Assembly (NCBI GenBank): GCA_042584585.1
Contig: JBHOSQ010000013.1
Span: forward strand, 1-31,501
Direction: 5' to 3'
DNA length: 31,501 nucleotides
DNA from: an archaeon
GTDB taxonomy: Archaea; B1Sed10-29; WALL01
Shown here: one piece after another, positions 12,326 through 23,533 of the stretch
Layout: each line of letters opens with the position of its first letter
How positions within the stretch are numbered: position 1 is the stretch's first letter
Position numbers and translations under genes: made by a program
Notes under the pieces: generated by a model
What the model saw: only the letters and a program-made list of their open reading frames with translations
Database searches by the model: none
What the model was told of the DNA's origin: nothing

Positions 12326-13228
12326 ATGTCGCAGACACTGATTTTCAGGAAGGGCGGGGACGTGACCTTGCTCCACGACGACCACATCAAAGAAAAAAAG
12401 GACTACGTCACGTGGATGCACCTCGGGCCTAATGAAAAGCTTATTGACGCAACCATCAAGGCGTTCGGCCAGGACGAAGACTTCCGGGAAGACTTCCTGG
12501 AGGAACAGAGGCCGAGGCTCGCCAACTTCAAAAACTTTTCCGTTGTTGTCTTCACAGCGCCCACCAAGACGGGTGTGGTGCAGCTTTCGTTCATTATTTC
12601 GAAGAACAAAGTCATTTCCGTCGCGAACGAAGTGACGGACTTGATTGACTTGGTGACGAAGGAACTGATAGACGAAAACGAAAAGTTGAGTCCCAGCGAG
12701 ATTTTGTCGCACATCATTGACGAGGCGATTGAGGCCTCGATTGACTTGATTGAGGACCAGGAAAAGTGGGCGGACGGGCTTGAGCTCAGTGTGCTCAGGA
12801 ACCAAAAGCTCAACCAAGGCAGGATACAGGACTTGCGCGTGGACGCGTTTTCCAACGCCAAGCTGTTCCGCGCAGACCTTGAGGTAATCCGGGAAATCCT
12901 TGATGGCGAAGCAAAATTCGTGAAGGCCTCGGAATTCGACGAAAACCACGAGGACCGTGTCCTGTTCGCGATTGACGAATTGGACACCATCAAGGAGTCG
13001 GTCACAAACATCACCAACATGCACTTGGCGAACCTGTCCCACAGGATGAACGAGAGCATGCACAAGCTGACAATCGTTGGCTCGATACTGCTTATTCCCG
13101 CCGTGGTCGCGAGCGTGTTCGGGATGAACGTGACGCTGCCGGCGCTGGGCTTCTGGGAAATAATGCTTGGCTCTTTAGGGGTCGCGCTCGTTATGGTGGG
13201 CGTGCTCAAGAGCTTCAAGTGGATTTAG
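12326..13228 (+). CDS. corA: CorA family Mg2+/divalent cation transporter
   Basis: Two C-terminal TM helices with the FGMN signature; MNESMHKLT. Confidence 0.92.
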   Translation: MSQTLIFRKGGDVTLLHDDHIKEKKDYVTWMHLGPNEKLIDATIKAFGQDEDFREDFLEEQRPRLANFKNFSVVVFTAPTKTGVVQLSFIISKNKVISVANEVTDLIDLVTKELIDENEKLSPSEILSHIIDEAIEASIDLIEDQEKWADGLELSVLRNQKLNQGRIQDLRVDAFSNAKLFRADLEVIREILDGEAKFVKASEFDENHEDRVLFAIDELDTIKESVTNITNMHLANLSHRMNESMHKLTIVGSILLIPAVVASVFGMNVTLPALGFWEIMLGSLGVALVMVGVLKSFKWI

Positions 13229-13230
13229 TA

Positions 13231-13286
13231 CAGCTTAAACTAAGCTGGCACGTTAGGCTAGGGCGGCGCAAGGCCGCCCGGAGACA
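13231..13286 (+). repeat. Structured repeat family 2, copy 1
   Basis: CAGCTTA-AAC-TAAGCTG, GGCACGTTAGGC, GGGCGGC-GCAAG-GCCGCCC; homologous to the minus strands of 14403-14470 and 22953-23036. Confidence 0.85.
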
Positions 13287-13297
13287 AACAAGTGGAT

Positions 13298-13486
13298 TTA
13301 GTTTTGCAGCTCGACGAAGTGCGCGATGCTGCGGTCATACGTTTTTTCCGCTTTAGTGCCAAAAAAGCAGGCAGGCAATTCCTCGCGCTCCCTGTGGTAC
13401 TTCACACACTCACAGCAAACGCCTTTTTTTGAGCAAGAATAAGTGCAGTTGCAGTTCGCCAAGTTTTTTTCTTTTCGGCATTCCAT
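13298..13486 (-). CDS. Small Cys-rich protein (DUF6485-like)
   Basis: [20 protein letters not shown]...LPACFF...EKTYDRS pattern. Confidence 0.8.
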
Positions 13487-14055
13487 TATTTCACCTTCAC
13501 GATTTTTCCGTGGCCTGGGACAATGAAGTCCGCTAGCTCAAGGACTTTTTTGCGGGAAGCAGCCAAAGTCGCCATGTCCCTTGCCACCGGGTCAGCGTAA
13601 TCAAGGCCCATGGATTGGCCTTCCCCCTCAACCCACCAGAACACGTCGCCGGCCACGATATACGTGCCTTCGGCTGTTGGGACTTTGACTACTATGTGCT
13701 CTGTGGAATGGCCTGGCGCCTGTATTAATTCCAGCTCGGTGCCCGGGACAGTGTTGTTGTGCTCGACTTGCTTGTCGCCATCGTAAATTTCGTCGGCGGT
13801 AATAACCCTTGCGTTCTCGAAAATGCCCGCGAGTAGTATATGGTCTATGTGGTCATGCGTCAAAACGACGAAGTCAATGTCAGAAACAGTAAGGCCTTCG
13901 TTGGCCAAAGCAGCCAAAAGCTTTTCGCGGCTGCAGCCGGGGTCGACAACAATGTTTTTCCCGTTTGATTTTATTAGCGTGGCAGTAGAGCTGGCAATCC
14001 AGCCGCCATCAATTTCGCGGGCATAGCCCTCAACCAAAACTTTTAGTTCAGCCAT
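13486..14055 (-). CDS. MBL-fold metallo-hydrolase
   Basis: VVDPG, THDHIDH, PGHS, AGD and PGHG motifs. Confidence 0.92.
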
Positions 14056-14069
14056 ATCAGACCCCTAGA

Positions 14070-14141
14070 TTTTCCGTCGACGCTTTTCCTGAGCCCCAGA
14101 CGTTGACTTTGGTCAACGTCAAAGTCCACAGAAAAGGGTCG
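14070..14141 (-). repeat. Structured repeat family 1, copy B
   Basis: Minus strand CGACCCTTTTCTGTGGACTTT-GACGTTGAC-CAAA-GTCAACGTC-TGGGGCTCAGGAAAAGCGTCGACGGAAAA, starting immediately after the tRNA-Leu CCA. Confidence 0.9.
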
Positions 14142-14230
14142 TGGTGCGGGGGAAGAGATTTGAACTCTCGAAGGCACTAAGCCACTGGGTCCTAAACCCA
14201 GCACATTTGACCGGACTTTGTTACCCCCGC
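14142..14230 (-). tRNA. tRNA-Leu(TAG)
   Basis: Acceptor GCGGGGG/CCCCCGC + ACCA; anticodon arm CTGGG-TTTAGGA-CCCAG; long variable arm; T loop TTCAAAT. Confidence 0.95.
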
Positions 14231-14276
14231 GTGCAAACCGGCACTGGCGGGTGGCCGGTGCCATGGCTGAAGGCAC

Positions 14277-14390
14277 TCAGTCCTTTCCGCGAGCCTTCTG
14301 GCGCCTCTTCTTGATTCGCCACTTGCGGCGCGAGCGCCTTTTCTTCTTTTCCTTGTCTCCACCACTGAAGAACAGTATCAACAAATTCAT
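14277..14390 (-). CDS. 37-aa basic peptide, ribosomal protein eL41 (L41e)-like
   Basis: Manual translation MNLLILFFSGGDKEKKKRRSRRKWRIKKRRQKARGKD; GAGGTGA directly upstream (true start may be the downstream TTG); below the ORF-track size cutoff. Confidence 0.55.
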   Translation of the reverse strand: MNLLILFFSGGDKEKKKRRSRRKWRIKKRRQKARGKD

Positions 14391-14402
14391 TCACCTCTGG
14401 GT

Positions 14403-14470
14403 TGTCGCGGCGTATGCCGCCCGGGCACCCTTGTGGTGCCCCGTCTAACGTGCCGCCTGAGTTTCAGGCG
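14403..14470 (-). repeat. Structured repeat family 2, copy 3
   Basis: Minus strand CGCCTGA-AAC-TCAGGCG, GGCACGTTAGAC, GGGCACC-ACAAG-GGTGCCC, extra hairpin GCGGC-ATAC-GCCGC, GACA; begins 3 nt after tRNA-Glu. Confidence 0.8.
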
Positions 14471-14473
14471 AAA

Positions 14474-14548
14474 TACTCCCGGCGGGATTCGAACCCACGC
14501 CACCGGCTTGAAAGGCCGGGATCCTTGACCAGACTAGACTACGGGAGC
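14474..14548 (-). tRNA. tRNA-Glu(TTC)
   Basis: Acceptor GCTCCCG/CGGGAGT + A; anticodon arm CCGGC-CTTTCAA-GCCGG; T arm GGTTCGAATCC; CCA not encoded. Confidence 0.95.
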
Positions 14549-14685
14549 CTTAGATGGGTGTTTTACGCTCCCGTGGGAGCATGCCCGCTATTTTTGCCTT
14601 TAATCCCTTAAAAAGTATTAAGGTTTAAAAACAAAAGGGCGTATAACTGGACACCACTCCGTATTTAAAGAGATAGGTGGGATTT

Positions 14686-14829
14686 ATGTCTAAAGAAATA
14701 GCCGCAAAAGCGCGTCTCGACAAGCAGGTATGCCTTAGCTGTGGCGCACTGAATGCACCCAAAGCCACGAAGTGCAGAAAGTGCCACAGGAAGAACTTGA
14801 GGCGAAAAGCGAAAGAGCCAAGGCGCTGA
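14686..14829 (+). CDS. rpl40e: 50S ribosomal protein L40e
   Basis: Manual translation [47 protein letters not shown], with the CxxC...ATKCRKC...LR signature. Confidence 0.95.
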
Positions 14830-14833
14830 GCTA

Positions 14834-15697
14834 ATGGCTGAGCAGCTGATTCGAGAGCTGGAGGGCGCGGGCTACAAGTGCTTCGTGCCACTCGAGAAAA
14901 AAAGCTGCTTTGACGTCGCCGCACGAAACGGGGACCGGTTTCTGCTCCTGAAGGTCTTTACCAACATAGACTCGCTCAGGGAGCCACAGGCCCAGAACCT
15001 CAAGGCACTTGCGGCAAGCCTCGGCGCGACGCCGATTGTCATTGGAGAAAAGTCCAAGGCGTATGAGCTGAAGACGGGACTGGTGTACGACCGGTACGGC
15101 GTCACCGTGGTCTCCATAGAAACTTTCACTCAATTGTTGCGCGGCTATCTGCCCAAGAAAAGGTTTTACAAGGGCCGTGTTGTGGCAGAGATTGACGCGA
15201 CGAAATTGGAGCAGGCAAGCCCTACGGAATTGGCGAAGGAATTGCACGTCACTCGCGAAGCGATTTATTCGTACCGCCATGGCACGCGCGTCGAGTTCGA
15301 GAAGGCGCTGGAGATGGAGCGGATTCTTGACGAGCCGTTGATAAAAGAGATTAATCCTTTTTCTGTGCCGACGAAGCAGAGCCCCATGCTCACAGGCTAT
15401 TTACAAAAGATGCACACGCTTGGGTTTGACGTGGTGCCGGTGCACCGCGGGTTCGACGCGCTCGCCAAGGAAAAAGAGTCGCTTTTGGTCGACAGCGAGC
15501 GCAGCGAGGCGTATGCCAAACGGAAAGCCAAGTTCGTGGCCAAGGCCGCGGACTTTTTCGAGAGCCACCCCGTCATAGTGATGGAGAGCCGGCGCAGCAC
15601 AATCAAGGGCGTGCCCGTGCTCCGCGAAAAAGAGATTGCCGAGGCAGAGAGCGCCGAGGGGCTCACGGACCTCGTGAAGAAGCGGAAGAAACAATAA
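14834..15697 (+). CDS. Archaeal predicted HTH transcriptional regulator (COG1395-like)
   Basis: SCFDVAAR...LLKVFTNIDSL, L.TGLVYDRYG and a central XRE-like HTH (PTELAKELHVTREAIYSYRHG). Confidence 0.85.
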   Translation: MAEQLIRELEGAGYKCFVPLEKKSCFDVAARNGDRFLLLKVFTNIDSLREPQAQNLKALAASLGATPIVIGEKSKAYELKTGLVYDRYGVTVVSIETFTQLLRGYLPKKRFYKGRVVAEIDATKLEQASPTELAKELHVTREAIYSYRHGTRVEFEKALEMERILDEPLIKEINPFSVPTKQSPMLTGYLQKMHTLGFDVVPVHRGFDALAKEKESLLVDSERSEAYAKRKAKFVAKAADFFESHPVIVMESRRSTIKGVPVLREKEIAEAESAEGLTDLVKKRKKQ

Positions 15698-15726
15698 GGA
15701 AAAACGCTATAACTTGGTTGGGCATC

Positions 15727-16230
15727 ATGGAAATGGAGGAAAAACACGAGAAGTTCCGCAAAAGCGTAGAGGTATACTTCAGCCCCGCCTCTTTCGAGAA
15801 GAAATTCCCTGAGCCGGGCTCTTATGGAGAAATAAACCGAAGGAAAAACAGCAATCCCGAGCTCGCGGATATTTATTACGAAGTTGTGAAGTCAAGTGTC
15901 AAAAGGGCAGAGTCGCTCTCCGAGCTCAAGAAAGTGCTGCAGTGGGCGCACGCACCTGATTTGGTATCCCAAATGACAAACTCCGGGAAACGCAAGAAGT
16001 ATGGGGTACATGACCGGGGCGACGTGGCCAAGGCCGTGATGGAAAAAGTGTTGTCGCTGGAAATCCCCAAAGAATGGCCCGAGAATGAATACCTTGAACT
16101 GCACTCTTTCGTCATTAGCCCCTACTTTCCCCAGCTCCACGAAAAAAAGAGCTACAAGGAAATCCGCAAGGCCCTTATGGACAAAGAAAACAAGGCGCTG
16201 TGGCTCATCCAGGCCAGCATGAAGGACTAA
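15727..16230 (+). CDS. Hypothetical protein
   Basis: 167-aa charged ORF filling the gap between two co-oriented genes; no recognisable motif. Confidence 0.65.
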   Translation: MEMEEKHEKFRKSVEVYFSPASFEKKFPEPGSYGEINRRKNSNPELADIYYEVVKSSVKRAESLSELKKVLQWAHAPDLVSQMTNSGKRKKYGVHDRGDVAKAVMEKVLSLEIPKEWPENEYLELHSFVISPYFPQLHEKKSYKEIRKALMDKENKALWLIQASMKD

Positions 16231-16262
16231 CCTTTTTATTCCCCACGCTCGTTGCCTTGGCT

Positions 16263-18965
16263 ATGGCGAGCATAGTCTGGTTCAAGGATGTTAGCAAGGG
16301 CGATATCCCAACTGTGGGAGGAAAAGGCGCTAATCTCGGCGAGATGGCGAACGCCAAGTTCCCAATCCCGGGCGGGTTCATCTTGACCGCCCAAACGTAC
16401 TTCAGCTACGTGAAGAGGAGCGGCATCCAGAAGCGGATTATTGAGCTGGCCAATTCCGTCGACGTCAACGACACAGCCGAGCTGCAAGCCACGGCACGGA
16501 AAATACAGGAAACCATTCTAGGAGCGCCGATGCTGCGGGACATCGCGGACGACATCAAGGACGAGTACAACAAGCTGTGCAAGCAAAGGGGGGGACAAGT
16601 CTACGTCGCCGCCCGAAGCAGCGCGACCGCCGAGGACCTGCCGGAAGCGAGCTTCGCGGGACAGCAGGCGACTTACCTCGACGTGCAAGGGGAAAACGAG
16701 TTGATTAAGGCGGTGCGGAAGTGCTGGGCGTCGCTGTACACGCCGCGCGCAATCTTTTACCGCGTGACACAAGGGTTCCCACACGAACAAGTCGGCATCG
16801 CGGTCGTCGTGCAGGAAATGGTGAAGAGCGAAGTCGCGGGAGTAATGTTTACGTCGGAGCCAACTGGCATGCGGCCCAACGAATTGGTTATTGAGAGCGC
16901 CTACGGCCTCGGCGAAGCAGTCGTCGGCGGCAAGGTCACGCCCGACACTTACATCATTGACAAGAAAAATGTAGAAATAAAAACCAAAAAGACGAGCACG
17001 CAAAAAGAAATGATTGTGCGGAACGAGCGCGGGCTTGGGACAGTCGTCGCGCCGGTGCCTCCAATCAAGCAAAGCCTGCAAAAGCTCCCAGACAACTTGA
17101 TTATCGAGCTCGCGGAGATAGGGAAAAAGATTGAGGCGCACTACAACTCGCCGCAGGACATCGAATGGGGCCTGCAGGACGGGAAGCTTTTCATCCTCCA
17201 GTCGCGCGCGATTACCACGCTGCAAATGAAAAAGGGTGAGGGCGTGAAGCCCACTGGCGAAGAACTGACGCGCGGGCTTGGCGCGTCGCCTGGCGTTGGC
17301 AGCGGCATAGTCAAAATGGTCCACTCCATGGAGGACTTGCCGAAGGTCCAGAAGGGCGACATACTGGTCACCGAAATGACGAACCCTGACATGGTGCCCG
17401 CCATGCAGCGAGCAGCGGCAATAGTCACTGACGAGGGCGGGATTACCTGCCACGCCGCGATTGTTTCGCGGGAACTGGGCATCCCGTGCATCGTTGGCAC
17501 GGAAAACATCACTGATTTGGTGCGGGACGGCGACAAGATTACTGTGGACGCGACGAACAACGTGGTGTACAAGGGCATTATCGGCATTGAGTCCGAGGCC
17601 GAGTTGACGCCTGAGGAATTGGCGAGCGCGCCCAAGACAAAAACACACATTTACCTGAACCTTGGTGTGCCCGAAATGGCGGAAAAGTACAAGGACTATC
17701 CCGTGGACGGCGTTGGATTGATGCGAGAAGAGTTCATCATCGCGACGTACGTGAAGGAGCATCCGCTGAAATTGATTCGCGAGGGCCGGCAACAAGTGTT
17801 CATCGACAAATTGTCCGAAGGGATTTCCATTGTGGCGGCGGCGTTTTCACCGAGGCCAGTGGTGCTGCGGATGAGTGACTTCAAGACCAACGAGTACCGT
17901 GACCTGGAGGGCGGCGAAGAGTTCGAGCCCGAGGAAGACAACCCAATGATTGGGTGGCGCGGCGCGAGCAGATACCACCACGAGGACTACAAGGACGCGT
18001 TCGTGCTTGAGCTGAAGGCAATCAAGAAGGCGCGCGAGACGCACAAAAACATTTGGATAATGCTTCCGTTCGTGCGCACCGTGAAAGAAGTGCAGGAAGT
18101 CGAGGCAATCATGAAGACCGAGGGTCTGGAGCGGGGACACGACTTCAAGCTCTGGATGATGGCCGAAATCCCGAGCAACGCCTTAATGGCCGAAGAGTTC
18201 GCGGACTACGTGGACGGGTTTTCGATTGGAAGCAACGACTTGACGCAGCTGGTGCTGGGGGTCGACCGTGACTCCGAAATACTCGGGAAAATGGGTTTGT
18301 TCGACGAGCGGAACGCGGCGGTCAAGAAAGCCATCAAGATGATTATCGCCGGCGCGCACAAGAAAGGCAAGACCGTGTCCTTGTGCGGCCAGGCGCCGAG
18401 CAACTACCCAGACTTCGCGGAGTTTTTGGTGGAAGAGGGGATTGACAGCATGAGCATCAACGCAGACGCCGTGGTGAAAGTGCGGACGGTTGTTGCGGCG
18501 GCGGAGAAGAAGAAAGAACAGCAATCAAGCCCGCCACCCGTGCAGCAGCAACCGCCTGCTCCAGAACCAACGCCGGAGCCCGCTCAAGCGCCTACACCCC
18601 AACCAACCCAACCGCTAATCCCGCAGCTCACTCAACCACGGCAAGAGCAGCCAACGGCACCAGAGCCAGAACCAACCAGCACTCCAACTGAGGAGTCAGC
18701 TAGTTCTCCGGAACCTGCCCCGGTTGAGACGCCAACTGAGGGGGCGGTGGCCCCTGACGTTGCGGCGGTTGACGTTGACCAAAGTCAACGTCCAGTCCCA
18801 CAACGTCCACCTGAGGACGCCCCCCCCAGTTCTTCTGGTGAACAAGCCAGTTCTGGGGAGTCGGGGCAGCCTAAGCAGGAAAGCTCGTTTTACAAAGAGG
18901 GGACTCTTGAGGGAGAGGGAAAAGAAGAGAGAAAGAAAATAGACATTTTCGGGTTTAAGATATGA
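16263..18965 (+). CDS. ppsA: Phosphoenolpyruvate synthase with long low-complexity C-terminal tail
   Basis: VGGKGANLGEM, RSSATAEDLPEASFAGQQ, DEGGITCHAAIVSRELG (phospho-His), NPMIGWRGASRY and FSIGSNDLTQL motifs; start moved to ATG 16263. Confidence 0.96.
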   Translation: MASIVWFKDVSKGDIPTVGGKGANLGEMANAKFPIPGGFILTAQTYFSYVKRSGIQKRIIELANSVDVNDTAELQATARKIQETILGAPMLRDIADDIKDEYNKLCKQRGGQVYVAARSSATAEDLPEASFAGQQATYLDVQGENELIKAVRKCWASLYTPRAIFYRVTQGFPHEQVGIAVVVQEMVKSEVAGVMFTSEPTGMRPNELVIESAYGLGEAVVGGKVTPDTYIIDKKNVEIKTKKTSTQKEMIVRNERGLGTVVAPVPPIKQSLQKLPDNLIIELAEIGKKIEAHYNSPQDIEWGLQDGKLFILQSRAITTLQMKKGEGVKPTGEELTRGLGASPGVGSGIVKMVHSMEDLPKVQKGDILVTEMTNPDMVPAMQRAAAIVTDEGGITCHAAIVSRELGIPCIVGTENITDLVRDGDKITVDATNNVVYKGIIGIESEAELTPEELASAPKTKTHIYLNLGVPEMAEKYKDYPVDGVGLMREEFIIATYVKEHPLKLIREGRQQVFIDKLSEGISIVAAAFSPRPVVLRMSDFKTNEYRDLEGGEEFEPEEDNPMIGWRGASRYHHEDYKDAFVLELKAIKKARETHKNIWIMLPFVRTVKEVQEVEAIMKTEGLERGHDFKLWMMAEIPSNALMAEEFADYVDGFSIGSNDLTQLVLGVDRDSEILGKMGLFDERNAAVKKAIKMIIAGAHKKGKTVSLCGQAPSNYPDFAEFLVEEGIDSMSINADAVVKVRTVVAAAEKKKEQQSSPPPVQQQPPAPEPTPEPAQAPTPQPTQPLIPQLTQPRQEQPTAPEPEPTSTPTEESASSPEPAPVETPTEGAVAPDVAAVDVDQSQRPVPQRPPEDAPPSSSGEQASSGESGQPKQESSFYKEGTLEGEGKEERKKIDIFGFKI
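18769..18792 (+). repeat. Isolated copy of the family-1 internal palindrome inside ppsA
   Basis: TTGACGTTGACCAAAGTCAACGTC matches 8626-8649 and the reverse complement of 14099-14122 over all 24 nt. Confidence 0.9.
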
Positions 18966-19159
18966 ATAAACAAGATGTTCGGAAAAAGTTTGGGCAGGCA
19001 GACAAGATGATTCTTGCGCTTGTTGTTTCGGCAGGCGTAGTGTTCTACTGGCGAGGCATTTGGGAGCTGAGCGAAAGCATTTTCCCGCCCATGGGCTCAC
19101 TCATTGTTGGCGTGACCATCCTTGTCTCGACCGGCTACCTCACAAAAGAATTGCTGTGA
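18962..19159 (+). CDS. Small membrane protein (2 TM)
   Basis: Two hydrophobic segments around FYWRGIWEL; ATGA overlap with the ppsA stop. Confidence 0.75.
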   Translation: MNKQDVRKKFGQADKMILALVVSAGVVFYWRGIWELSESIFPPMGSLIVGVTILVSTGYLTKELL

Positions 19160-19160
19160 A

Positions 19161-19745
19161 CTATTTCTTTTTCTTTTTTCGCTTGCCGATTGCATTTAGC
19201 GCGAGCCGCAGTATGTGCTTTTCGTGGATTTCCCCGTAGAACAAAAGCAGGATTGACAAGGTGAACGCGACTATTGACAGCACGTCGGACGCGACGTAGT
19301 ACAGCGAGCCCTCGAACGCCCAGTACCAGAACACGAAGCCGAGTGCGGAGCCGATGGTGATGAACACTGCAGCCGCTGAAGTGCGGAGGCGGAGCGCGAA
19401 CGCGATTACCGCGGACCACGTAACGCCAAGTGTGAACGAAAAAAAGACGAGTGACAAGTAGTAGCCGAAGTGGCCGAACTCTTGGAAAAACCGGTTCTCA
19501 AGTGCCTCGGTGTTGTGGCGGATGTCATCGACTTTTTTGTTGGCCGCGTTCGCGAACTTTTCGAGTAGGGCGCGGCGGTGCAGCAATGGATAGTCCAGGC
19601 CCTCCAGCACGTAATGGATTACCACCAGCTCACCGAGCTGCGCGAGCATTCCCGTGACCAGCATATCTGCCCACGACATGGTCATAATCCCGAGTGGGAT
19701 GGCCACGATTGGGCCGAAGAACAAATACGCCAAGAGAAAGCTCAT
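19161..19745 (-). CDS. Integral membrane protein (DedA / small multidrug export-like)
   Basis: Several hydrophobic segments, FTLGVTWSAVIAFALRL, basic C-terminus. Confidence 0.7.
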   Translation of the reverse strand: MSFLLAYLFFGPIVAIPLGIMTMSWADMLVTGMLAQLGELVVIHYVLEGLDYPLLHRRALLEKFANAANKKVDDIRHNTEALENRFFQEFGHFGYYLSLVFFSFTLGVTWSAVIAFALRLRTSAAAVFITIGSALGFVFWYWAFEGSLYYVASDVLSIVAFTLSILLLFYGEIHEKHILRLALNAIGKRKKKKK

Positions 19746-19800
19746 TGAAGCGTAGTTAGCGCGTACGGGTATAAAAAGATAGCTAGCGTAATTTTTGTCA

Positions 19801-21105
19801 ATGGAAAAGAGGCACAAGGCGGCAAAAGAGTTTGACGCGCTTTACTCGGTTAACCGGGTGTTCACTAGGGCGCATGAGGACATGCTCTCTTACGCCAATG
19901 TCTTGGAAAAGCAGGGGGAAGACCCGAGGTACAGAAAGCTTGCCAAGCTCAAGAAGTCGGAACTCCTGGAGAATTTTAAGTCCATACAAAAGCTGCTTGG
20001 CGAAGTCGGGAGCTATGGGGGCCTGAAGGAAAAAGTGGTGGACGATTTCAAGAAAAAAAGCAACTACATCAAAGAAGGAGACCACCAGCGGATTCGATAT
20101 GTGGCAGAAAACACGTGGGATGGCTACCAGAGATGGAAGGCCCTCAAGACGCACTGGCTGCTCGACAACCGGAATGAAATGAAAAAGCTGCTTAGCGAAA
20201 GGTACGACATCCCGGAGAATGTGGTGGTAGTGCCGGGTGGAAGTTGCGCCTTTTTGGAAAGGAAAGACGAGCTTGACGGTGCGGTCGAAAGCGTTACTTG
20301 GGGGATTGACGTCGCGGACAGCAAGAAAAAAGCGCTTCTTGAGGACTTGCACAAGGCGATGGACAAGCACGGGAAACTCATTATCGTTACTCCGTTCCTG
20401 CACACGAACGCGCTTTTGCACGAGGGCCCGCGCATGCCTGAGCTCTATGCCCTGGCCAAGACCGTCGAGGCGGGGGCATACGAGAGAAATCTTATGCTGC
20501 TCAGCGCGGGCGTGCAGCCCGGGGTGCAGGTCTTATTCGCACCAACTAAGCAAAGTGACGGATGGCGCGAGGCAGAAAAAAGATACATGGATATCTTGGA
20601 CCGCCACACGGTTTCCCAAACGCCATTCCCACTGCTGCCGGTCATCAAGCACGAAGAAGAGCACGGCGAGAACCGCCAGTTCTTTAATGACGTTAACGAA
20701 GTGGTCGCCAAAAAGCACGGCAAGAACCCGGGAGAACACGAATGGCAAACCCTGCTGCTCAGTGCCTTCGGTGAATCAATGGCCCTGCGGGAAGAGTATA
20801 AGGGGAGCCTGAAGAAAAACGCTTACCCCCATGCGGGTGACTTTGAGCACCAGCTCGGCACCTTGCTGGCAAAGGCATACGAAGAAACCGGCATAAGCAA
20901 AGACGAAGTCAAGGGCATAATAAGGGAAGCGGCGGCCAAAGGCAAATTAGAGCACGCGGCAAGCAAAATCGCGGAAAAAGTCAAGGGCCACGACGCGCTC
21001 TACCGGAGCATTCGCGTCATGATAGGAAAAGAAAAGCCAAACCTGCACAAGCGCTTCAGAAAAGCCTTTGCAGATATACGCGAAGAACACCGAAAAAGCG
21101 AATGA
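19801..21105 (+). CDS. Hypothetical protein
   Basis: 434-aa charged ORF with no motif I recognise. Confidence 0.75.
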   Translation: MEKRHKAAKEFDALYSVNRVFTRAHEDMLSYANVLEKQGEDPRYRKLAKLKKSELLENFKSIQKLLGEVGSYGGLKEKVVDDFKKKSNYIKEGDHQRIRYVAENTWDGYQRWKALKTHWLLDNRNEMKKLLSERYDIPENVVVVPGGSCAFLERKDELDGAVESVTWGIDVADSKKKALLEDLHKAMDKHGKLIIVTPFLHTNALLHEGPRMPELYALAKTVEAGAYERNLMLLSAGVQPGVQVLFAPTKQSDGWREAEKRYMDILDRHTVSQTPFPLLPVIKHEEEHGENRQFFNDVNEVVAKKHGKNPGEHEWQTLLLSAFGESMALREEYKGSLKKNAYPHAGDFEHQLGTLLAKAYEETGISKDEVKGIIREAAAKGKLEHAASKIAEKVKGHDALYRSIRVMIGKEKPNLHKRFRKAFADIREEHRKSE

Positions 21106-21153
21106 ATTTAAACCAGTCTGCAGTAACGAACGAAACACTAGTTCTTTTTGGAA

Positions 21154-21223
21154 TCATGACGCGACCGAAACCCTTATATATGTGTCATGATTAAGTCATG
21201 ATACTTCGGTTGATGAGTCATGA
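21154..21223 (+). promoter_or_regulatory. Promoter (BRE + TTATATA at 21174-21180) with four TCATGA palindromes
   Basis: TCATGA at 21154, 21185, 21196 and 21218; the last overlaps the ATG. Confidence 0.65.
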
Positions 21224-21636
21224 CGAAAATGACAGAGCTCTACGGAACTGAAGATTACCCTGAGCTCTCAAAGGACGTCAAGTACGACATAGAGCAGTTC
21301 AAGGACCCCTACGTCGTTGGGGCCATGATCCACAGGCTCGTGGAAGAAAGAAAGCTCACCAACACGATGCTGCGTGACATTCACAAGAAGCTTAACACGC
21401 TCACCCAGCTAATGGAGAAACAGGGCATCGACACAACTGGTGCCCTGCTATCCGACCAGGACGAGAAGATCCTGGGGTTCGTGAAGGGCTCCGGGAAGGC
21501 CACGGCCGAAGAAGTCCGGAAAAAGTTTGGGTACAAGGGGAAGAACGCCGCGAGCGCCCGGTTGAACGCGCTCGAGAAGGACGGCTTCCTCGCAAAGAAA
21601 CGGGTCGGAAGAAAAGTAGTATTCTTGACTCGATAG
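21220..21636 (+). CDS. Winged helix-turn-helix protein with N-terminal coiled coil
   Basis: LSDQDEKILGFV...ATAEEVRKKFGYKGKNAASARLNALEKDGFLAKKRVGRKVVF. Confidence 0.82.
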   Translation: MTKMTELYGTEDYPELSKDVKYDIEQFKDPYVVGAMIHRLVEERKLTNTMLRDIHKKLNTLTQLMEKQGIDTTGALLSDQDEKILGFVKGSGKATAEEVRKKFGYKGKNAASARLNALEKDGFLAKKRVGRKVVFLTR

Positions 21637-21805
21637 CACTCATCTGGGGTGGGAACAGCACACAGGAATCGTTGCCGCTGCTCTTGGTAAAACTATCTTT
21701 GTGGAACACCTCGCGTAAAAATTCGGGGGCAAGTTTCTCGGAGCCCCCCACCCCCTCCTTTCTATCTACGGCCGGGCAACCGGTCAAACCTACTAACTTA
21801 GCCAC

Positions 21806-21935
21806 GCTTTTCCGCCAGCGCTTTTCCACCCAGCGAGCGAAGCGAGTAACAGGAAAAGGGCTGTTTTCCATCGACGCTTTTCCGCCGTTCAAGGGGTTAG
21901 CGGGCGGCTAACCCCCTGTAACAGAAAAAGGGTCG
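21806..21935 (-). repeat. Structured repeat family 1, two tandem units (C1 21864-21935, C2 21806-21863) with different inserts
   Basis: Minus strand CGACCCTTTTTCTGTTAC-[AGGGGGTTAGC-CGCCC-GCTAACCCCTT]-GAACGGCGGAAAAGCGTCGATGGAAAA, then CAGCCCTTTTCCTGTTAC-[TCGCTTCGCTCGCTGGGT]-GGAAAAGCGCTGGCGGAAAAGC. Confidence 0.82.
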
Positions 21936-21976
21936 CGGGGCAACGTTTTTAAGCCAGTTCTCTGTAAGCGGTAGCA

Positions 21977-22951
21977 ATGGCATTCGGCATACCCGACGAG
22001 GTGCTTCTTGGGGGAGTTGCGGCAATAGCGTTGCTAGTCGTCGCGCTGAAGTTCCTGGCGGGCAGGAACGAAGCGCCGAAGTACCACCGGCACCACAGCC
22101 ACGGCGAGCCCGAGGCAGAAGGCGTCAAGCCAGAGGACCACACTGAACTCGAGGACATGATTAACCCAAAAGCAAAAGTCAAGGGCACAGAAAGCGCGGC
22201 AACCGTCGAAGAAGAAGAAACAGCTGGAATGAGCGTCGAGACCGAGGGCCTGGAGGCCTTGCTCGCGCGGCCGATTGACGAAGCGCCGAGCATCGGGCCA
22301 GAGCACAAGACCAACGTCGACGCGGGCCTCGAGCAACTGAAGTTCGAGGGAGAGCCAAGCGCCGCACCGGACGTGCCGCCCGAAATCAAGCACGAAATGA
22401 AGCAGGAAAAAGCCGAGGAAAAGCCTGTGCCCGCGACCGCCAAGGACTTGGCGCGGTTAAGGGAACAGTTCGGTGAAGAGTACGACATTGACCGGCTGGG
22501 GGAAATAGTGGCGGTGCCAGAGGCACGGCCGAAGTACACTCCCCCGAAAGACATTGAGGAAAAAGCCGAGGCCGAGGCAAGCAAAGAGCGGCCCGCCAAG
22601 CTATACGACCGCGCGAAAAAAGACCGCGCGGAAAACCTTGAGCGGTACTGCATGCTGCAGTACGACGCGGGAAAGAGCCCGCGCAAGGTTGACGGCCTGT
22701 TGCGCGTGAAGGGGCTTAACGCAAATGCCTCGAAACAAATGGCGTTCAAGAACTACCGCGTGTGGATAGAAAAGCGCGAGCCGATTATTCGCGAGATAAA
22801 AGAAACCCGGGACATGATTAAGCGGATTGAGTACAAGTTTTTGAAGCAGCAGATTGACGGCGTCACGAGAAAGAGCTCACTCAACGAGGCCAACAAAAAG
22901 ATTGCGGGGCTAGAGGCGAAGCTAAAAAGCAGTGAAGACTATTTTGACTGA
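21977..22951 (+). CDS. Hypothetical membrane-anchored protein with acidic linker and C-terminal helical domain
   Basis: N-terminal TM, HRHHSH, Glu/Pro-rich middle, coiled-coil-like end; TTTTTAAG about 24 nt upstream. Confidence 0.8.
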   Translation: MAFGIPDEVLLGGVAAIALLVVALKFLAGRNEAPKYHRHHSHGEPEAEGVKPEDHTELEDMINPKAKVKGTESAATVEEEETAGMSVETEGLEALLARPIDEAPSIGPEHKTNVDAGLEQLKFEGEPSAAPDVPPEIKHEMKQEKAEEKPVPATAKDLARLREQFGEEYDIDRLGEIVAVPEARPKYTPPKDIEEKAEAEASKERPAKLYDRAKKDRAENLERYCMLQYDAGKSPRKVDGLLRVKGLNANASKQMAFKNYRVWIEKREPIIREIKETRDMIKRIEYKFLKQQIDGVTRKSSLNEANKKIAGLEAKLKSSEDYFD

Positions 22952-22952
22952 A

Positions 22953-23036
22953 TGCCTCTGGCGGCCTTGCGCCGCCAAGTCTAACGTGCCATGACGTGAA
23001 TCCCAACGGATTCTCGTCTGGGCTTAGTTTAAGCTG
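22953..23036 (-). repeat. Structured repeat family 2, copy 2 (with inserted hairpin)
   Basis: Minus strand CAGCTTAAACTAAGC-[CCAGACGAGAATCCGTTGGGATTCACGTCA]-TGGCACGTTAGAC-TTGGCGGC-GCAAG-GCCGCCAGAGGCA. Confidence 0.85.
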
Positions 23037-23053
23037 TTTGACTGAAGCGGGAG

Positions 23054-23500
23054 TTATTTCCGCTTCGGTTTTTTGTATCGTTCCTTACTCTTTTCCCAGT
23101 TCTGGCGCGGGTCAGAAACACCCGGGACGTTGCCTTGGGTTTCCGCGCCTTCTTGTATGGCTGCGTTACGCCACCCAGCCGACTTCACTGGCCGCCTTGG
23201 AATGCGTGCGCTGGATCCAGCCCTAAACTCTCCAACAAGCTTTTGCACTTCCTCAGTCAAGTGCTCCGTTGGGATAAGCTCTGGCTCGCCGGCCTTGGCG
23301 CCTTTCTGCGGCATATCCTTAAGGATAATTCCGTCTGGTGTCATAAGCACCGTGGCGCCCCTCTTCAGCTTTTTAATGAGGGCCTCAGGATCAGCCTCCG
23401 GCATTTGCTTGAGCTTTTCAAAATCGATTAGGTCTGCCGGCTTTGCCAGTGCCTTTTTGATTTTTGCTTCCATTTTTCTTTTGTCGTCAGCAGTACTCAT
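23054..23500 (-). CDS. Hypothetical basic protein
   Basis: 148-aa Lys-rich ORF, GGTG upstream, co-oriented with the radical SAM gene. Confidence 0.6.
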   Translation of the reverse strand: MSTADDKRKMEAKIKKALAKPADLIDFEKLKQMPEADPEALIKKLKRGATVLMTPDGIILKDMPQKGAKAGEPELIPTEHLTEEVQKLVGEFRAGSSARIPRRPVKSAGWRNAAIQEGAETQGNVPGVSDPRQNWEKSKERYKKPKRK

Positions 23501-23533
23501 TCAAACACCAACCATAATTATTGCATTTGTTGC

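Follow-up and report, generated by a model that had tools for sequence, protein, structure and literature searches.

What kind of sequence is a short, structured, non-coding element that stands behind three different genes in one small archaeal contig? The stretch in question, which we call the window, is the whole of contig JBHOSQ010000013.1 of assembly GCA_042584585.1 (31,501 nucleotides; GTDB lineage Archaea; B1Sed10-29; WALL01), it is contig C13 of a genome of 1,016,689 bases in 32 contigs with 55% G+C (G000). A preliminary description made from the letters alone reported three copies of a two-hairpin element and left several explanations side by side, including an undescribed non-coding RNA, a self-cleaving ribozyme, a processing signal and a single-stranded DNA recombination substrate. 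The last of these fits best, because the copies carry target duplications, are present or absent between congeners, cluster at tRNA genes and are stacked in one orientation in an island; a ribozyme or a known non-coding RNA is unsupported. We conclude that the element is probably a mobile non-coding DNA insertion with a precise hairpin 5' end, specific to one Iainarchaeum-like genus of DPANN archaea.

All three reported copies are present in the window. Their extents and parts are as follows.

13231..13286, plus strand: element copy 1, short form, 56 nt (full model, 76.8 bits; folding z -3.49)
13231-13247, plus strand: hairpin 1 of copy 1 (from the sequence)
13247-13258, plus strand: conserved linker of copy 1, GGCACGTTAGGC (from the sequence)
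13261-13279, plus strand: hairpin 2 of copy 1 (from the sequence)
13280-13286, plus strand: end of copy 1, GGAGACA (from the sequence)
14415..14470, minus strand: element copy 2, 56 nt, beginning 3 nt past tRNA-Glu (model, 58.7 bits)
14403..14414, minus strand: flanking bases TACGCCGCGACA, probably outside the element; TACGCCGC pairs with the final GCGGC of the element
22953..23036, minus strand: element copy 3, long form, 84 nt (3' part 22953-22993, 39.5 bits; folding z -5.94)
22989..23021, minus strand: extra hairpin module of copy 3, CCAGACGAGAATCC-GTTG-GGATTCACGTCATGG

The core GGCACGTTAGRC occurs three times in the 31.5-kb window against 0.01 expected, and none of 100 shuffles reached three. 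Most of what had been described holds. Hairpin 1 is CAGCTTA-AAC-TAAGCTG in one form and CGCCTGA-AAC-TCAGGCG in the other, and the three compensatory pairs claimed for it are borne out; for hairpin 2 three had also been counted, and GGGCGGC/GCCGCCC against GGGCACC/GGTGCCC shows two. The labels of the extra hairpins had been interchanged, GAATCC/GGATTC belongs to the copy at 22953-23036 and GCGGC-ATAC-GCCGC to the one at 14403-14470. This tRNA-Glu copy had been drawn to 14403, the covariance model puts its end at 14415 (...CGGGCGGCA), where it still has the GRCA terminus ascribed to all copies. The GCGGC-ATAC-GCCGC hairpin is formed by the last bases of the copy paired with flanking DNA at 14407-14414.

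The element is non-coding and about 55-120 nt long, there is no coding capacity in the 56-nt unit. A 7-bp hairpin 1 with the loop AAC is followed by a single-stranded linker GGCACGT(TAG)RC, a hairpin 2 that is G+C-rich and free in sequence, and GRCA. Hairpin 1 (CAGCTKA-AAC-TMAGCTG or CGCCTGA-AAC-TCAGGCG) and GGCACGT are common to the copies. The helix closes with a G-C pair, then a purine-purine pair, then C-G. The 3' module comes in several types: RCTTGGG…CCCAGAGRCA (type A), ACTAAAGCGG…CCGCAAATAGGCA (type B), TGTCCGTG…CAGCGGAC (type C), a type D and a further type rich in the congener G002, GACGAGGG…CCCGGCGGCA. In types C and D the TTAGRC is replaced by TGTCC or CGGGA, and a subfamily of three copies has a different hairpin 1 and GCGCGGTAGRC. 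Some copies, among them copy 3, have a third hairpin between hairpin 1 and the linker. The CCAGACGAGAATCC-GTTG-GGATTCACGTCATGG module of copy 3 recurs in four further G000 copies; in G002 copies its stem differs (ACCG/CGGT against GACG/CGTC). Some hairpin-2 sequences are common to several copies and to different species.

The preliminary description had proposed selection on the structure, and this is supported: pairing is selected, not sequence. In an alignment of 19 copies 94.9% of cells pair, both sides change in 11 of the 18 pairs, and the covariation score was reached by none of 500 shuffles; sliding the 3' partners lowers pairing to 21-47%. An alignment of 66 distinct copies, drawn from the three genomes, has 95.3% of its cells paired and compensatory changes in 13 of its 18 pairs, and again no shuffle in 500 reaches the score; it was fitted to the covariance model and so leans towards structure. 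The purine pair between the closing G-C and C-G is A.G in 33 copies, G.A in 19, G.G in 11 and T-A in 4 (n=67), and A.A, expected about 11 times from the marginals, is never seen. Conservation also extends to the hairpin-1 loop and to the linker, for which the consensus fold gives no pairing. A possible pseudoknot of three bases, AAC of the loop with GTT of the linker, was weighed by eye and dropped, since type D copies have no GTT.

The family is large in this genome and narrow in distribution. A motif scan of G000 found 35 copies; a covariance model built from 19 short copies gave 38 matches at E<=1, of which 36 are at E<=4e-4, and the total comes to about 39 when two long type-C variants (motif only) and one copy cut by a contig end are added. 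The search of this genome and its relatives that had been suggested earlier thus found many copies, confined to one genus. Among 61 genomes (G000 and 60 relatives) the matches fall in G000 (36) and in two congeners, G001 (6) and G002 (56). One marginal match (E 0.0065) lies in a genome of another family, and the model found none in the 57 other relatives, which include three other genera of the same family. Of 185,579 species genomes searched with a 20-nt pattern, the two congeners alone yielded element-bearing records (Candidatus Iainarchaeum, Nanobdellati metagenome-assembled genomes), and ten metagenome loci hold true copies. Among public sequencing runs, two DNA runs shared small fractions of the words searched (0.07 and 0.06), and no RNA run was among the matches. 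Seven single bacterial pattern matches compare with about 17 estimated by chance, and none of the five given to the model matched (L083 and L089 are not among these five). A single viral-contig match has no hairpin-1 5' arm and fails the model, it is a chance match. Rfam at gathering score finds four tRNAs only in the window. At E<=10 ten element loci give matches of 15-22 bits on four single copies, each to a different family, whose gathering scores are 53-90; no Rfam family fits, which leaves the ribozymes and known non-coding RNAs that had been considered without support. A literature search, with subscription journals outside its coverage, found no description of the element.

The copies behave as DNA insertions. 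Exact flanking repeats of at least 10 bp bracket 5 of 35 copies, compared with 0.65% of 2000 control sites; an ungapped flanking repeat score of at least 10 is reached by 16 of 71 copies in the three genomes, compared with 1.9% of 1500 controls. The repeats are 10-57 bp long. Between the upstream repeat and hairpin 1 lie 0-5 nt in 12 of the 16 loci (0-3 nt at most loci), and the downstream repeat begins 0-21 nt past the element or after cargo. Two of the 16 loci are window copies 1 and 3, the surroundings of the window copies are listed here.

12326..13228, plus strand: corA, upstream of copy 1 (Pfam CorA, E 9e-30)
13216..13229, plus strand: copy 1 upstream direct repeat CAAGTGGATTTAGT (14/14 identical, 1 nt from hairpin 1)
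13289..13302, plus strand: copy 1 downstream direct repeat CAAGTGGATTTAGT (repeat scan)
13298-13486, minus strand: DUF6485 gene (Pfam DUF6485, E 5.6e-7)
14474..14548, minus strand: tRNA-Glu(UUC), upstream of copy 2 (tRNA search)
23037..23046, minus strand: copy 3 direct repeat TTCAGTCAAA, fossil copy, abutting hairpin 1 at distance 0
22943..22952, minus strand: copy 3 direct repeat TTCAGTCAAA, intact copy, abutting the 3' end of the element
23054..23500, minus strand: open reading frame (ORF) of 148 aa, upstream of copy 3 (no Pfam match)

The upstream CAAGTGGATTTAGT contains the final codons and TAG stop of corA, and in the downstream one the convergent DUF6485 gene has its TAA stop (minus strand, 13298-13300). 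Since the repeat holds the overlapping stop codons of the two genes, both stay whole. At copy 3 the TTCAGTCAAA at 22943..22952 is the intact one because it holds the TGA stop (22949-22951, plus strand) of the gene at 21977-22951.

Comparison with the congeners gives filled and empty sites. Copy 3 is absent in G001 and G002: at the orthologous place G002 has TTCAGTCAAA once, without an element, and G001 has neither the element nor the ORF at 23054-23500. The copy at C8:44247 has an empty orthologous site in G002. Conversely, G002 has an extra 125-nt insertion behind tRNA-Glu which is bracketed by 18 bp of the tRNA 3' end and consists of a reversed type-C element and other hairpins.

Two side observations belong to these loci. 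Aligned with locus L037 (G001:C6), window 22953-23530 contains about 580 bp (the element and the ORF at 23054-23500) that are missing in G001; G002 carries a different ORF there, so the place is a variable spot between two conserved genes. At L045 (G001:C34), aligned to window 14474-14548, the tRNA-Glu gene is interrupted past the anticodon loop by some 70 nt, probably an intron, and behind the gene other small hairpins, including one at the aligned place of copy 2, stand instead of the element.

tRNA genes are preferred neighbours. Genes were called with a simple codon-usage caller (992 genes, 88% coding) and tRNAs with ARAGORN (39). A tRNA gene is the immediate neighbour of 14 of 38 copies, against 6.9% of intergenic gaps and 9.8% of intergenic bases (P = 1e-7 to 8e-6). 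Convergent gaps hold 11 of 36 copies and 26% of intergenic bases, which is unremarkable, and by eye neither a common target motif nor conserved bases upstream of hairpin 1 were seen. Partial tRNA copies with the gene restored are found at tRNA-Gly, tRNA-Val and tRNA-Arg in G000 and at tRNA-Glu in G002.

The insertions have a polarity. At all 11 assignable loci the intact gene end lies on the 3' (cargo) side of the element and the partial, or fossil, copy at hairpin 1. These loci are the window copy at 22953-23036; C11:20936, C2:118764, C3:30044, C8:2757 and the C6 array of G000; and C18, L063, L070, the L062 array and L049 of G002. The polarity is the same whether the target is a 3' end (tRNA-Val, tRNA-Gly, tRNA-Arg, tRNA-Glu, protein genes) or a 5' end (tRNA-Gly, a PD-(D/E)XK nuclease gene). 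Copy 1 is two-sided in this respect. The 35-bp repeat at C8:10424, considered as an exception, is intergenic and not assignable. At L063 the fossil and functional copies differ at five positions, all synonymous as judged by eye.

Hairpin 1 of the element at L070 (G002:C13:112700-112863) contains the stop codon of the gene upstream (TCG GCT TAA); the insertion therefore supplies the last codons of that gene.

The largest assembly of copies is an island on contig C6 of G000, where 12 co-oriented copies lie 0.2-4 kb apart between C6:4159 and C6:21724 and the genes run both ways. Eight fossil starts of a nuclease gene precede the intact gene (C6:22920-24071, PDDEXK_1), and five of the eight are cut exactly at hairpin 1 after 19-56 nt of coding sequence. 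By eye the fossils differ by switches between serine (AGC/TCC) and arginine (CGC/AGA) codon families, which suggests that they may derive from different alleles and not from one lineage duplicated in place. The island (C6:4159-24071; L001, L002) also carries genes for secreted or membrane proteins and a Fic/DOC gene (C6:10320-11240).

We infer that the DNA end at the base of hairpin 1 is made with precision and that the other end is variable; the element would therefore be the end that leads in a one-ended insertion. Such a process is favoured by the polarity, by spacers of unequal length and by the allele-like fossils. More tentatively, then, the element may be the recognition and end-defining module of an undescribed polar, one-ended process of DNA insertion in DPANN archaea that has no recognisable transposase, integrase or reverse transcriptase, in which a single-stranded end defined by a hairpin is joined into a gene or tRNA end, the other side is resolved via homology, the target is restored, and cassette and defence islands are built. 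Hairpin 1 and the linker, in single-stranded DNA, would be recognised by a nuclease or recombinase acting in trans. On its 3' side the element would remain joined to the donor DNA and become fixed by homology to the adjacent gene; its hairpin-1 end would be linked illegitimately into the copy of the recipient, of which the fossil would be left. If this happened repeatedly at a single gene, co-oriented cassette arrays would result.

Several points weigh against reading the element as a mobile insertion of this kind. A homology-anchored model cannot seed new loci, and staggered-cut transposition with variable duplication explains the short identical repeats of the window equally well. Flanking repeats are absent in 55 of 71 copies. 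All of the genomes are metagenome bins, and several copies lie at contig ends. Searches of the three genomes, which are 84-89% complete (G000 84%), gave no match to RVT_1, Y1_Tnp, Cas1, rve, resolvase, Rep_trans or relaxase families; for RVT_1 the positive controls matched. Y2_Tnp and Helitron_like_N were also without a match in the three genomes, their positive controls were silent too and these blanks say little. DDE_Tnp_1 gave one sub-threshold match. Tyrosine recombinases (Phage_integrase) number none in G000, one in G001 and one in G002, and the lack in G000, which includes the XerA type, may reflect its 84% completeness. Four TnpB-type (Cas12f1-like_TNB) genes are found only in G002 (C3:10561, C3:79611, C3:102282, C13:134192), on contigs or at positions without elements; G001 has none and G000 one sub-threshold match.

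Orthologous copies are, moreover, conserved in place, and because dead insertions should decay this indicates function in situ or gene conversion. Between G000 and G002 the first 29 nt and last 9 nt of the tRNA-Glu copy are identical, and its hairpin 2 shows changes in two pairs, both compensatory, and in two bases of the loop. C3:17136 and C3:30044 have orthologues with nearly the same hairpin 2, with a swap of G.A and A.G at C3:30044. C9:36459 and C3:31994 have an identical 5' module and a 3' module of another type in G002, at C8:44503 both modules differ, and at C1:12211 only the 3' module is left in G002. Sites are thus long-lived while their content turns over, which fits recombination between copies or repeated hits at hot spots.

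Conservation in place leaves room for function in situ. The element could be above all a functional RNA motif, spread or co-opted, with selection acting on the transcript as a 3'-end or precursor-tRNA processing signal, a terminator or stability element, a protein-binding small RNA or a self-cleaving ribozyme. The strong covariation of both stems, the constrained purine-purine pair, the conserved linker and hairpin-1 loop, and orthologues that hold the 5' module unchanged while hairpin 2 changes by compensation would all suit an RNA. So would a fixed T.G position that pairs on the sense strand only and the sense orientation of the window copies, which had been noted before and is correct within the window: they begin 2, 3 and 17 nt past corA, tRNA-Glu and the ORF at 23054-23500. 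As a general rule this orientation fails. The end of a co-oriented gene lies upstream of just 17 of 37 copies, whereas the 3' end of the element faces the 3' end of a convergent gene in 25 of 37, as it does for two of the three window copies, which are thereby antisense to that gene. The 12 island copies are co-oriented regardless of gene orientation. Outside the fixed T.G position the stems hold 13 G.T and 15 A.C, so G.U-type pairs are not enriched over A.C, and the tolerance of G.U that RNA helices usually have does not show. Folding is about equally good on either strand: as single-stranded DNA the window copies have z = -3.5, -3.9 and -5.9, and their complements z = -3.2, -4.1 and -6.3. 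Target duplications and empty sites are DNA events, no Rfam family matches and the element is restricted to one genus. We consider a primarily RNA-based function of this kind unlikely.

An explanation closer to a mobile DNA insertion is a non-autonomous transposon like a miniature inverted-repeat transposable element (MITE), moved by a transposase or casposase-like integrase acting in trans (from a virus, a plasmid or the host of the symbiont) with variable staggered cuts, the polarity being a by-product of selection. In its favour are short identical repeats against both ends (10 bp at 0/0 nt, 14 bp at 1/2 nt), numerous copies scattered over targets that are unrelated, and some hairpin-2 sequences common to copies and species. 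Classical MITEs, however, have terminal inverted repeats, and by eye there are none here (CAGC... against ...GRCA); nor is the duplication length fixed (10-57 bp). Spacer length differs between the two ends (for most loci 0-3 nt at hairpin 1, but 0-21 nt or cargo at the 3' end), and the polarity holds at 11 of 11 loci for target 5' and 3' ends alike. The codon-family switches of the nuclease fossils suggest different alleles, and the transposase families searched for were not found. This explanation, too, seems improbable to us.

Other small features accompany the elements. GACGTTGAC-N4-GTCAACGTC palindromes lie inside hairpin 2 or after the linker at six places in G000 (C2:114745, C6:4159, C6:10069, C6:11337, C8:44587, C8:24002) and give the impression of a very small mobile palindrome in its own right, with hairpins as its targets. 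A second repeat family, TTTTCCATCGACGCTTTTCC…GTAACAGAAAAAGGGT, is found at window 21864-21960 and at C8:44495, C11:34861 and C24:816 of G000, often directly 3' of a hairpin element, in all three congeners. Downstream of copy 2, a small Lys/Arg-rich ORF at window 14236-14400 (minus strand), between tRNA-Glu and tRNA-Leu, is conserved in G000, G001 and G002, and we take it to resemble ribosomal protein L41e. The tRNA-Leu is located as follows.

14142-14230: tRNA-Leu, 172 nt downstream of 14403

The genomes of DPANN archaea are tiny and densely packed, and the ways in which they acquire genes are poorly understood. The hairpin family shows DNA entering at gene and tRNA ends without breaking the target, with a 56-nt structured module as one border, and at least one cassette island of 17 kb has been built in this way. 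If an enzyme is found, this would be a new insertion mechanism, perhaps a compact structure-guided tool for DNA insertion; should it act as RNA as well, the element would count as a new RNA motif of archaea. The repeats also break assemblies, copies lie at the ends of three contigs (C8, C24, C2). Contig C24, which begins 1 nt before a copy, was considered as a plasmid or virus; it carries TBP, Rpb4, DUF655 and KsgA-type genes and is chromosomal.

The integron attC site is among the closest known systems, and an attC-like site of an integron-like system, at which a recombinase crosses over in the linker (G/TTAGRC), exchanges downstream DNA and stacks cassettes, is the last alternative. What defines an attC site is the pairing of two complementary boxes, R'' (RYYYAAC) and R' (GTTRRRY), at the foot of its fold. 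The GTTAGRC of types A and B fits the integron core GTTRRRY, structure is conserved while sequence varies, the 12 co-oriented C6 copies are spaced 0.2-4 kb apart, and C9:36459 and C3:31994 share a 5' module and swap the type of 3' module. But GTTAGRC lies in an unpaired linker with no GYCTAAC partner in the element, types C and D have no TTAGRC (TGTCC or CGGGA), no tyrosine recombinase was found in G000, and target duplications, foreign to integron recombination, enclose entire elements: attC cassettes insert without duplicating their target, and 16 of 71 copies here have flanking repeats. We regard this alternative as very unlikely. Integrons in archaeal metagenome genomes have been reported, according to the part of the source used here, mostly as attC clusters without an integrase (PMC9668308). 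Hairpin element and attC share a folded structure over sequence, co-oriented sites between small cassettes and a GTTRRRY-like word; the hairpin element differs in having no box pairing, in its target duplications and in its spread over dozens of unrelated loci, especially tRNA ends, whereas integron attC sites stand in one array behind attI.

For the hairpin element as a probable mobile, possibly one-ended DNA insertion other comparisons are informative. Repetitive extragenic palindromic (REP) elements are defined by a palindrome after a conserved GTAG word and by a gene for a REP-associated tyrosine transposase (RAYT, Y1); here TTAG precedes hairpin 2, GGTAG occurs in the three-copy subfamily and Y1_Tnp matches none of the three genomes. 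Short interspersed nuclear element-like retroposons share variable duplications, and the reverse transcriptase (RVT_1) is found in none of the three genomes. The oriIS end of IS91/ISCR insertion sequences and the nick site of oriT are processed by histidine-hydrophobe-histidine (HUH) enzymes, without target duplication. The element has in common with them a precise end by a hairpin, a variable other end that carries cargo, and polarity; it differs in that HUH families were not found here, two of these searches being without a positive control. Homology-facilitated illegitimate recombination is a further comparison.

Palindrome-associated transposable elements (PATEs) of haloarchaea are transposase-free derivatives of IS200/IS605 type and are stated, in the part of the source used here, to cause no target duplications (PMC3119063). 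As described there, they are short and non-coding, without terminal inverted repeats, with palindromes near their ends and heterogeneous copies, all of which the hairpin element shares; small palindromic repeats nest in their palindromes, like GACGTTGAC...GTCAACGTC in hairpin 2 here. The hairpin element differs in its target duplications, in that no Y1 transposase was found in the three genomes, and in TnpB genes that are present in G002 only and lie away from the elements.

The tycheposons of Prochlorococcus are integrase-borne islands at tRNA genes that leave partial tRNA copies (bioRxiv 10.1101/2020.12.28.424599). They are, in the sections of that preprint drawn on here, several kb long (the 10-20 kb class of phage-inducible chromosomal islands is compared there), and encode a site-specific integrase, one for each tRNA target; the hairpin element can be a unit of 56 nt, has many targets unrelated to one another and, in G000, no integrase that was found, so that an encoded integrase with a single cognate site, as in tRNA-targeting integrative elements, is not its arrangement. 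It does resemble those elements in that part of the target gene's end is repeated at the far border and the gene is restored, and it shares with the tycheposons, as far as they are described in those sections, the preference for tRNA genes, the partial copies of target ends, the restored gene and the accretion of islands in tandem.

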